A stretch of 64,000 bases of DNA from a virus. Lineage: Duplodnaviria > Heunggongvirae > Uroviricota > Caudoviricetes. The notes under the pieces were generated by a model, which searched no databases, was not told the origin of the DNA, and was given only the letters and a program-made list of their open reading frames with translations. Both the position numbers and the translations under genes were made by a program. Shown in pieces: positions 62,287 through 64,000 of this stretch (positions are counted from its first letter, which is position 1; each line of letters begins with the position of its first letter). Where the stretch lies: IMG/VR virus record IMGVR_UViG_2721755662_000004; one strand, given 5' to 3'.

Positions 62287-62450
62287 ATCGTGCAGTAACA
62301 TCCTTTTCTTCCTTGCCATTTCTCAATGATGACAAAGGGTGGATTCGGATTGGTATTGGGACAAAAGTGAGACACACAAAGCTTTGCATCGGCTTACAAA
62401 GCTTTGCATGTTTTTCAATGTTGGGACGTGTGAGCGCAGAAATGACGGGC

Positions 62451-62567
62451 TATCTAATTGATTTTAAACGATACGTAACCAACTTTAAAATCTTTGCACG
62501 CCAGTTCGCAGGTTTTACAGCCAGTACAGCGGCTGGAATCGATAAAAAATCCATATTGTGTGGTCAT
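62451..62567 (-). pseudogene. ynfG: 5' fragment of a dmsB/ynfG-like gene interrupted by the prophage
   Basis: Translates MTTQYGFFIDSSRCTGCKTCELACKDFK, then diverges and stops 10 codons later; AAGGAG SD overlaps the upstream gene's stop. Confidence 0.75.
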
Positions 62568-62577
62568 GGGCTACTCC

Positions 62578-64000
62578 TTAAACCTTTTCGATCTGGACAA
62601 GATTGCTGTGCGACGGGTTTCCCTTTGCCAGCGGTGAAGGGCGGTGAGAGGTCAGAATATTGATACTGCCGCCGTGATCGACCCGGTCACCAAACATATC
62701 CGCTTTAAGCCACGCACCTTGCCCGATGGCGGTAACGCCAGGCAGAATACGCGGAGTCACTTTTGCGGCAATCAGCATTTCTCCATTATTGTTAAATACC
62801 CGCACGGTATCGCCATGACGGATACCGCGAGCCTGAGCATCAATGGGGTTGATCCACACCTCTTGTGGGCAGGCCTGCTGTAACACATCAATATTGCCGT
62901 AGCTGGAGTGGGTACGCGCCTTGTAGTGGAAGCCCGTTAACTGCAGTGGATAGGTTTTCCGCAGGGGATCGTCCCAGCCATCAAAACCTGGCGTATAAGC
63001 TGGAAGGGGATGAATAATTTCATCTTTTTTCAATTCCCAGGTATCCGCAATCTTCGCCAGTCGTTCAGAATAAATTTCGATTTTCCCCGAAGGTGTTTTC
63101 AACGGGTTTGCCTGGGGATCTTCACGGAATGCGCGGAAAGCGACGTAGTGTTCTTCCGGGCATTTTTTCTTAAAGATCCCGGTCGTTTTCATCTCCTCGT
63201 AGTCGGGCATCTCAGGGTTACGTTCCTTCGTTTTCGCATGGAGATATTTGATCCATTCATGCTGACTGCGACCTTCAGTAAAGGTTTGATAAACGTCTGG
63301 TCCTAAGCGTTTGGCGACTTCACTCAGCATCCAGTAGATGGGTTTGCGTTCAAATTTTGCAGAGGTTGCGGGTTGGGCGAGGATCACATAGCCCATATTC
63401 CCTGCAGATTCATGAGAGATAAGGTCTTCTTGCTCTGTTGGCATCAGGTCGGGCAACAGGATATCGCAATACTTAGCCGAGGCCGTCATGAAGTGGTCAA
63501 TGCCAACAATCATCTCGCACTTGCTGTCATCCTGAAGCACCTCATGGGTGTGATTGATGTCGCCATGTTGATTGATCAATGTGTTACTGGCGTAGCACCA
63601 TAAAAACTTGATGGGGACATCCAGTTTTTCTTTTCCACGAACACCATCACGGGTCGCGGTCATTTCCTTACCATGGTCGATGGCATCTGTCCATGTAAAG
63701 ACGGAAATCTGCGTTTTAACAGGGTTCTCAAGCATCGGGAACCATTCTACCCCCAGATCCCAGCTACCTTCGCGTACACCTGAGTTGCCGCCGTTTATGC
63801 CGACGTTACCGGTGAGAACGGAAAGCATGGCAATAGCGCGGGACGTTTGCTCGCCGTTGGAATGTCGTTGTGGCCCCCAACCCTGACAAATATAAGCAGG
63901 TTTTGCTGAACCGATCTCTCGTGCCAACTGGATAATTTTTTCTGCCGGGATGCTGGTGATTTTTGCTGCCCATTCCGGCGTTTTAGCTATGCCGTCAGGC
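62578..64000 (-). CDS. DMSO-reductase-family molybdopterin oxidoreductase catalytic subunit, C-terminal part; gene continues beyond the window
   Basis: Ends ...SHSNLVQIEKV; followed by the dmsB/ynfG-type gene. Confidence 0.8.
   Translation of the reverse strand, partial: PDGIAKTPEWAAKITSIPAEKIIQLAREIGSAKPAYICQGWGPQRHSNGEQTSRAIAMLSVLTGNVGINGGNSGVREGSWDLGVEWFPMLENPVKTQISVFTWTDAIDHGKEMTATRDGVRGKEKLDVPIKFLWCYASNTLINQHGDINHTHEVLQDDSKCEMIVGIDHFMTASAKYCDILLPDLMPTEQEDLISHESAGNMGYVILAQPATSAKFERKPIYWMLSEVAKRLGPDVYQTFTEGRSQHEWIKYLHAKTKERNPEMPDYEEMKTTGIFKKKCPEEHYVAFRAFREDPQANPLKTPSGKIEIYSERLAKIADTWELKKDEIIHPLPAYTPGFDGWDDPLRKTYPLQLTGFHYKARTHSSYGNIDVLQQACPQEVWINPIDAQARGIRHGDTVRVFNNNGEMLIAAKVTPRILPGVTAIGQGAWLKADMFGDRVDHGGSINILTSHRPSPLAKGNPSHSNLVQIEKV

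Follow-up and report, generated by a model that had tools for sequence, protein, structure and literature searches.

What marks the boundary between phage and host DNA at the right end of a virus sequence, and what are the two identical repeats that lie just inside it? These questions are raised by a stretch of 64,000 nucleotides of a Caudoviricetes virus (IMG/VR record IMGVR_UViG_2721755662_000004), hereafter called the window. An earlier note on this DNA had proposed a prophage junction near 62483 inside a dmsB/ynfG-like gene and had taken two direct repeats beside it for arm-type binding sites of the integrase (Int). We conclude, with a probability of about 0.7, that positions 62351-62494 are the right attachment site (attR) of a ~62.5-kb lambdoid, Shiga toxin (Stx)-phage-like prophage integrated in ynfG, and that this site belongs to a P22-family recombination module in which TGRGAC motifs would be the arm-type Int sites and two 14-bp repeats (14-mers) would be sites for the excisionase (Xis). 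The coordinates of all features are collected in Table 1.

The prophage interrupts ynfG

We compared positions 61700-64000 of the window by megablast with 5,426 complete E. coli genomes. Matches were obtained in 5,324 of these genomes, and the occupied form was found in 82. In the unoccupied genomes (>5,000), the match started at query base 784, which corresponds to window position 62483, and extended rightwards only, where it lay under an intact ynfG and ynfF. For example, ynfG is intact in the unoccupied strain EC24. Since the unoccupied allele is a continuous, intact ynfG, the divergence seen in the window is an insertion junction and not native sequence, and the position given in the earlier note was confirmed. 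The same note had described the host gene as intact for 28 codons before it diverges and stops, and the translation of the minus-strand open reading frame (ORF) at this place agrees: it consists of 28 native codons (62484-62567), MTTQYGFFIDSSRCTGCKTCELACKDFK, followed by nine phage-derived codons, VGYVSFKIN, and a stop codon. In RefSeq, this truncated ORF is labelled '4Fe-4S binding protein'. Its neighbour ynfF is the upstream neighbour of ynfG in the ynfEFGH-dmsD operon, according to the RefSeq annotation of the 100% identical and the unoccupied genomes. The insertion site lies at codons 26-31 of E. coli ynfG.

The left end of the prophage was examined in the genome of NCCP 13983, which matches the window at each of the 2,301 compared bases (61700-64000; 100% identity). 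In this genome, the rest of ynfG (annotated without an N-terminus), ynfH and dmsD follow directly beyond the integrase gene that occupies the left end of the window. The insertion disrupts ynfG, and the phage provides no replacement 5' end, because the left attachment site (attL) leaves only a GTG-started ORF without the first Fe-S cysteine motif. Note that two consecutive GTG codons, in frame with ynfG and ahead of its codon 27, are provided by the phage sequence at attL (52-59 nt to the left of window position 1), and a start there could yield an N-terminally truncated YnfG without the first CxxCxxCxxxC cluster. Furthermore, int is co-oriented with ynfG-ynfH-dmsD, and read-through from int might drive these three genes.

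The att core and the reconstructed attP

To define the core, attL was taken from NCCP 13983 and the unoccupied site (attB) from EC24, and both were aligned with attR and the phage attachment site (attP). In this four-way alignment, CTTTAAA was the sole identity run common to attP and attB at the switch point, and it is present in all four att sites. The attB sequence reads ...CCAAGAT-CTTTAAA-ATCTTTGCAC...; attL follows attB through CTTTAAA and is phage sequence after it, and attR is phage sequence through CTTTAAA and follows attB after it. The crossover falls within this 7-bp core, whose first base is the megablast breakpoint. In attB, the core flanks form a perfect inverted repeat, AAGAT-CTTTAAA-ATCTT. 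The comparison with an uninterrupted host allele that the earlier note had suggested thus yielded the core itself, and the matching copy, which the note had advised looking for left of int in the flanking DNA, was found in NCCP 13983, just past the edge of the window and 52 nt downstream of the stop codon of int.

We reconstructed attP by joining the left part of attR to the right part of attL. The product was identical at 399 of 400 positions to a contiguous attP in an IMG/VR contig (L244), which has a 100% identical int beside it. The circular junction therefore exists, as demonstrated independently of our reconstruction. Recombination between attL and attR would restore AAGATCTTTAAAATCTT across ynfG. 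A tRNA gene was rejected as the target: the window contains zero tRNA genes, and its attP has no tRNA-like fragment, unlike those of P22 and the phage 2G7b. Note that our literature search for a published att core of ynfG phages gave integration-site statements only.

A P22-type module with proposed TGRGAC arm-type sites

The tyrosine recombinase gene adjoins the other att site, attL, with the gene of the recombination directionality factor (RDF) beside it. Xis is 72% identical to P22 Xis over 116 amino acids. RefSeq gives only a 22-codon 'helix-turn-helix, incomplete' pseudogene at 1020-1391; the ORF is actually intact and aligns with full-length P22 Xis with no frameshift. The order of elements in the arm distal to int (P arm) is common to P22 and the window: TGGGAC-N5-TGRGAC, two CTTTGCAT-containing repeats 20 bp apart, a T run, the block TGGGACGTGTGAGCGCAG, and the core. 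The int-side arm (P' arm) is also alike in the two, with TGGGACA(A/T)ATTTGGGAC inside the last int codons.

We then counted TGRGAC on both strands of the window and found 30 occurrences, against 57 expected by chance. Five of the 30 fall in the attP span of ~240 bp, all on the plus strand (starts at 62357, 62368, 62422, 35 and 46; Poisson P = 1.4e-7). The motif is thus found on both arms, in a 3 + 2 pattern. P22 attP is said to have 3 + 2 arm-type sites as well.

To compare relatives, we gathered P arms by pattern scans for the block around the third site (P3), and the ~140 loci retrieved, enterobacterial and phage, contained 66 different P arms. Another 80 loci, in viral contigs with related Int, were unusable for this purpose, nearly all being prophage predictions that end at the int stop codon. 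The GAC cores of the P1 and P2 sites were among the most conserved columns of the 66 P arms. The P3 block TGGGACGTGTGAGCGCAG is identical in P22, L, 2G7b and the ~140 loci, although P3 was fixed by the search pattern, so that its conservation in the 66 P arms is uninformative. The TGRGAC/GGGAC blocks are constant across relatives while the repeat sequence in the middle switches class. On the P' side, 23 distinct int 3' ends were compared; in 19 of these, with 4 exceptions, GTCCCAAAT(A/T)TGTCCCA was nearly invariant down to the third positions of its codons, whereas the neighbouring codons varied freely. Since the P' pair is nearly invariant at synonymous positions and its neighbours are free, these alignments indicate that the pair is under constraint at the DNA level. 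The N-terminal domain of Int would bind the five TGRGAC sites, namely P1, P2 and P3 in attR and P'1 and P'2 in attL.

Table 1. Positions of the attachment-site, phage and host features in the 64,000-nucleotide window.
Feature	Position	Strand	Basis or remark
int, 387-aa P22/DLP12-type tyrosine integrase	1..1164	(-)	PF00589 (1.5e-45); 71% identity to P22 Int
Predicted arm-type Int sites P'1 and P'2 (TGGGACAAATTTGGGAC), in int codons VPNLSH	35..51	(+)	Starts 35 and 46
xis, intact 123-aa excisionase overlapping int start	1020..1391	(-)	HTH_17, TIGR01764, phrog_2907
attP P-arm stretch homologous to P22, L and ST64T	62351..62468	(+)	blastn against phage collection, 82-85% identity
Predicted arm-type Int site P1 (TGGGAC), 11 bp from P2	62357..62362	(+)	Motif scan, P-arm conservation
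Predicted arm-type Int site P2 (TGAGAC)	62368..62373	(+)	Motif scan, P-arm conservation
Terminator-like hairpin of the two palindrome-containing repeats, 17 bp	62372..62411	(-)	Terminator scan, RNA fold
Direct repeat copy 1 (ACAAAGCTTTGCAT), proposed Xis site X1	62376..62389	(+)	Homologous to P22 ACAAATCTTTGCAT
Direct repeat copy 2 (ACAAAGCTTTGCAT), proposed Xis site X2	62396..62409	(+)	Homologous to P22 GCAAGGCTTTGCAT
Predicted arm-type Int site P3, inside conserved block TGGGACGTGTGAGCGCAG	62422..62438	(+)	Block identical in relatives; TGRGAC enrichment
Weak IHF (integration host factor)-like site, predicted, between P3 and core	62451..62463	(-)	AATCAATTAGATA, one mismatch to WATCAANNNNTTR; inference from sequence
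Truncated ynfG' ORF	62454..62567	(-)	Translation; intact YnfG in unoccupied strain EC24
attR core, probable 7-bp overlap region, CTTTAAA	62483..62489	.	Four-way attB/attL/attR/attP alignment; megablast breakpoint 62483
Host-derived predicted core half-site ATCTT	62490..62494	.	Read directly from attB sequence
ynfF (host, 3' part; extends past window end)	62578..64000	(-)	RefSeq annotation, ORF list

The 14-bp direct repeats as candidate Xis sites

We next turned to the repeats between P2 and P3. The earlier note was right that there are two exact direct copies; its coordinates (62386-62420) were not, as the true places lie 10 bases to the left. The two copies of ACAAAGCTTTGCAT, with a start-to-start spacing of 20, are the only exact matches in the window. 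When up to three mismatches were allowed, nine matches were found against 8.7 expected, so that the exact pair alone is meaningful. The copies are arranged head-to-tail, occur on the P arm only, and each contains the palindrome CAAAGCTTTG. The homologous middle regions of the relatives fall into 16 sequence classes, and a direct repeat at offset 20 was the best offset in 14 of them and beat composition shuffles at P < 0.05 in 11. A half-site consensus, CA..gCTTT..ATC, was recognized in both halves. As judged from these comparisons, the repeat pair is not due to chance, and a 20-bp-spaced repeat occupies the same place in the P arms of many enterobacterial phages.

RDFs typically bind direct repeats that are arranged head-to-tail and spaced by whole helical turns; in lambda, two turns separate X1 from X2, and X1.5 lies in the interval (PMC7498355). 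The 14-mers fit Xis sites better than Int arm sites because they lie between arm sites, are arranged head-to-tail and have a 20-bp spacing, and they are probably binding sites for the P22-like Xis encoded next to int. P22 reportedly has one main Xis-protected region, on the P arm. In the Proteus phage V3 (vB_BPM-V3), the GGGAC arm sites are kept, a different repeat, GCAACnTnAAGTA, occurs twice (13 of 18 positions matching), and the helix-turn-helix of Xis is different too. Such a joint change of the repeat and of Xis is the covariation that would be expected for Xis sites. If the 14-mers are bound in this way, Xis would bend the P arm so that arm-bound Int reaches the core, and this bending would make the attL x attR excision reaction Xis-dependent.

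Several points weigh against this assignment, which is probable and for which the grounds are the position, geometry and homology of the repeats. The Xis recognition region, ISRPTATNWIR(T/S)G, is nearly the same in classes A, B, C1 and C7, whose repeats nevertheless differ outside the CA..CTTT..AT skeleton. A palindrome inside each repeat is unexpected for monomers that bind head-to-tail. Moreover, two phage records annotate a terminator at the position of the repeats, and one of them, that of epsilon34, also gives a CII-binding site there. Strict covariation of Xis and repeat was not retained as a rule: it holds for the distant Proteus phage only and fails among classes A, B and C.

Two sets of loci deserve mention in their own right. 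Downstream of int, the Proteus phage vB_BPM-V3 has kept a P22-type attP layout, but its 20-bp-spaced repeat, GCAACATGAAGTAGC / GCAACTTCAAGTAAC, is wholly unlike that of the window and its Xis is divergent. Two IMG/VR contigs (L210 and L172) have a class B P arm beside Int and Xis proteins that are 52-53% and 38-39% identical to those of the window, respectively; instead of a true attP, these contigs may contain tandem prophages at a shared tRNA site.

Other readings of the repeat pair

We weighed the assignment to Xis against four other readings. The one put forward in the earlier note, that the 14-mers are arm-type sites for the N-terminal domain of Int, draws on the presence of exact direct repeats in the P arm at ~80-110 bp from the core, a distance where lambda arm sites occur, and on a lone partial match, CTTTGCAT, on the P' side at window positions 10-17. 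However, this partial match is absent at that position in P22 and 2G7b, and the 14-mer is missing from the P' arm of relatives. TGRGAC, on the other hand, occupies both arms with five copies and is far more conserved; the repeat differs from class to class, and Int, with its N-terminus, is constant, as are the TGRGAC sites. We accordingly regard Int arm sites as a very unlikely identity for the 14-mers. Still harder to credit is that the repeats are CII/C1-type activator sites (TTGC-N6-TTGC) of an activator-dependent promoter in the P arm. The window does contain TTGC-N6-TTAC-N6-TTGC at 62384-62407, P22 and epsilon34 carry three perfect TTGC at 10-bp spacing, and the epsilon34 record annotates a 'putative CII-binding site' at this spot; but classes B and C have lost the TTGC pattern, there is no acceptable -10 element at the required distance, and the direction of transcription, antisense to int or out into the host DNA, would be unfit for a lysogeny activator. 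We rejected a CII-dependent promoter on the grounds of the missing -10 element and the senseless direction.

A role mainly in RNA, with the pair forming a minus-strand hairpin that acts as an intrinsic terminator or processing site, is unlikely but has more to recommend it. In the circular phage, the hairpin would lie ~130-170 nt downstream of int across attP, as lambda sib/tI does; in the prophage, it would lie just inside attR and would block ynfEF read-through into the antirepressor-like genes. The terminator scan gave a terminator-like match over both repeats (62411-62372), and the minus-strand fold has an energy of -22.7 kcal/mol (z -6.0), a stability that none of 200 shuffles reached. 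Among the 26 distinct sequences of classes A and B, 91.6% of the stem cells are paired and four pairs have changed on both sides, e.g., from C-G to U-A and from U-A to C-G. The epsilon34 record also notes a 'possible rho-independent terminator for transcription from int', and the phage L record a terminator. Class C relatives, however, have no hairpin potential (z near 0) and yet keep the 20-bp direct repeat. In addition, the stem is AU-rich, with G-C pairs at 5 of 17 positions, the U run begins 5-6 nt past the stem, the two compensatory changes found in many sequences represent one lineage event each (class B), and the relatives have no consistent strand preference. In these alignments, the direct repeat appears as the universal feature and the hairpin as the feature of a sublineage, with an uncertain function. 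Under the assignment of the 14-mers to Xis, a hairpin formed by palindromic repeats may be a secondary function (terminator) or a by-product. An Rfam match of the hairpin to mir-19 (26 bits, with a gathering score of 50) was discarded as a chance match to a generic hairpin.

Finally, the 14-mer pair might be dual, binding Xis as DNA and, in minus-strand RNA, folding into a hairpin for termination or processing; only in the circular attP would this hairpin be joined to int, and integration would part the two. We think this combination rather improbable. If true, it would place a sib-like int retroregulator inside the Xis-binding region of one sublineage of the P22 family, and the hairpin of the prophage would shield the adjacent antirepressor-like genes from ynfEF read-through.

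Other features of the prophage

The region left of attR contains three tandem antirepressor-like genes, encoding Bro-N/P22_AR_C (59996-60628), AntA/P22_AR_C (60883-61512) and truncated AntA (61762-62046) products. Three minus-strand copies of Rfam sRNA-Xcc1 were found at 60670-60759, 61553-61638 and 62088-62172 (67.7, 73.4 and 49.9 bits; gathering score 53), each within the 5' leader of one of these genes, and they look like a conserved leader RNA of the antirepressor-like genes. A promoter-like sequence, TTGACA-18-CATACT, is located at 62286-62257 on the minus strand.

Further inside, the prophage resembles Stx phages without carrying stx: the gap between Q (20569-21102) and the homologue of the SASA-esterase gene nanS-p (21868-23778) is 765 bp and contains the small RNA STnc100 (21441-21646). 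Two tandem sets of c4-a1b1 target, isrK and C4 antisense RNA (P1/P7-type immunity RNA) are located on the plus strand at 16516-16714 and 18101-18299, both upstream of a KilAC antirepressor gene (19104-19832). A sok antitoxin RNA at 14477-14651 on the plus strand (110 bits) implies a hok/sok-type toxin-antitoxin locus in the prophage. The late region encodes a 2,784-amino-acid 'large polyvalent protein' (47992-56346, plus strand) with LPD38, LPD5, LPD1 and MuF_C domains.

Comparison with known phages

The closest relatives are the Shigella Stx1 phages POCJ13 and 75/02 Stx, the Escherichia phage PhiR5_2 and the Stx1a prophage of E. coli RM10410, whose Int is 99.7-100% identical and whose P arm is 100% identical to those of the window. 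Integration in ynfG has been published for POCJ13 and 75/02 Stx, both with an Int 99.7% identical to that of the window, and for the RM10410 Stx1a prophage (PMC5447701; PMC10562709). The junction is real but of low novelty, since ynfG has been reported before as a site of integration in this phage family. The prophage in the window lacks stx between Q and nanS-p, whereas phiSTEC1589-Stx1c has ~1.75 kb more at this place, including stx1AB. The present analysis is of value mainly for annotation: it defines CTTTAAA as the exact core, provides a map of the sites in that branch of the P22 integrase family which targets ynfG, and reassigns the repeats, which are more likely to serve Xis than to be arm sites of Int. 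In Shigella and E. coli, Stx1 is carried by this ynfG-targeting branch, and the map is useful for defining prophage boundaries and for designing excision and occupancy PCR.

In P22, the P arm is 82-85% identical to that of the window over 118 bp and has the same order of two adjacent GGGAC sites, the CTTTGCAT repeat pair and a third GGGAC; as in the window, two GGGAC sites lie inside the int 3' end and xis overlaps int. The targets differ: P22 integrates in the Salmonella tRNA-Thr gene thrW, has a long tRNA 3' segment in common with its host and leaves the gene restored, whereas the prophage in the window lies in the protein-coding ynfG with the 7-bp CTTTAAA, has no tRNA-like fragment in attP and leaves ynfG disrupted. 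The DLP12-type argU phage 2G7b is similarly related: its Int and Xis are 87% and 85% identical to those of the window, and its P arm, likewise homologous, contains the same GGGAC blocks, although its core is the 3' end of tRNA-Arg. Copy 1 of its repeat has diverged (ATAAGGCCTCACAAT) but is still complementary to copy 2. A tRNA-targeting P22-type module has thus been retargeted to a protein-coding gene, with only the core-proximal sequence changed and the arm architecture kept.

The layout of lambda attR is P1, H1, P2, X1-X1.5-X2/F, H2 and core. It has no sequence similarity to attR of the window, and the arm sites are unlike in number and placement (3 + 2 predicted in the window, with two adjacent pairs), the predicted P' sites of the window lying inside the int coding sequence. 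The two would nevertheless be alike in the heterobivalent logic of the integrase, in a 7-bp overlap and, with the 14-mers as the proposed Xis sites of the ynfG prophage, in head-to-tail RDF repeats two turns apart on the int-distal arm (PMC7498355).

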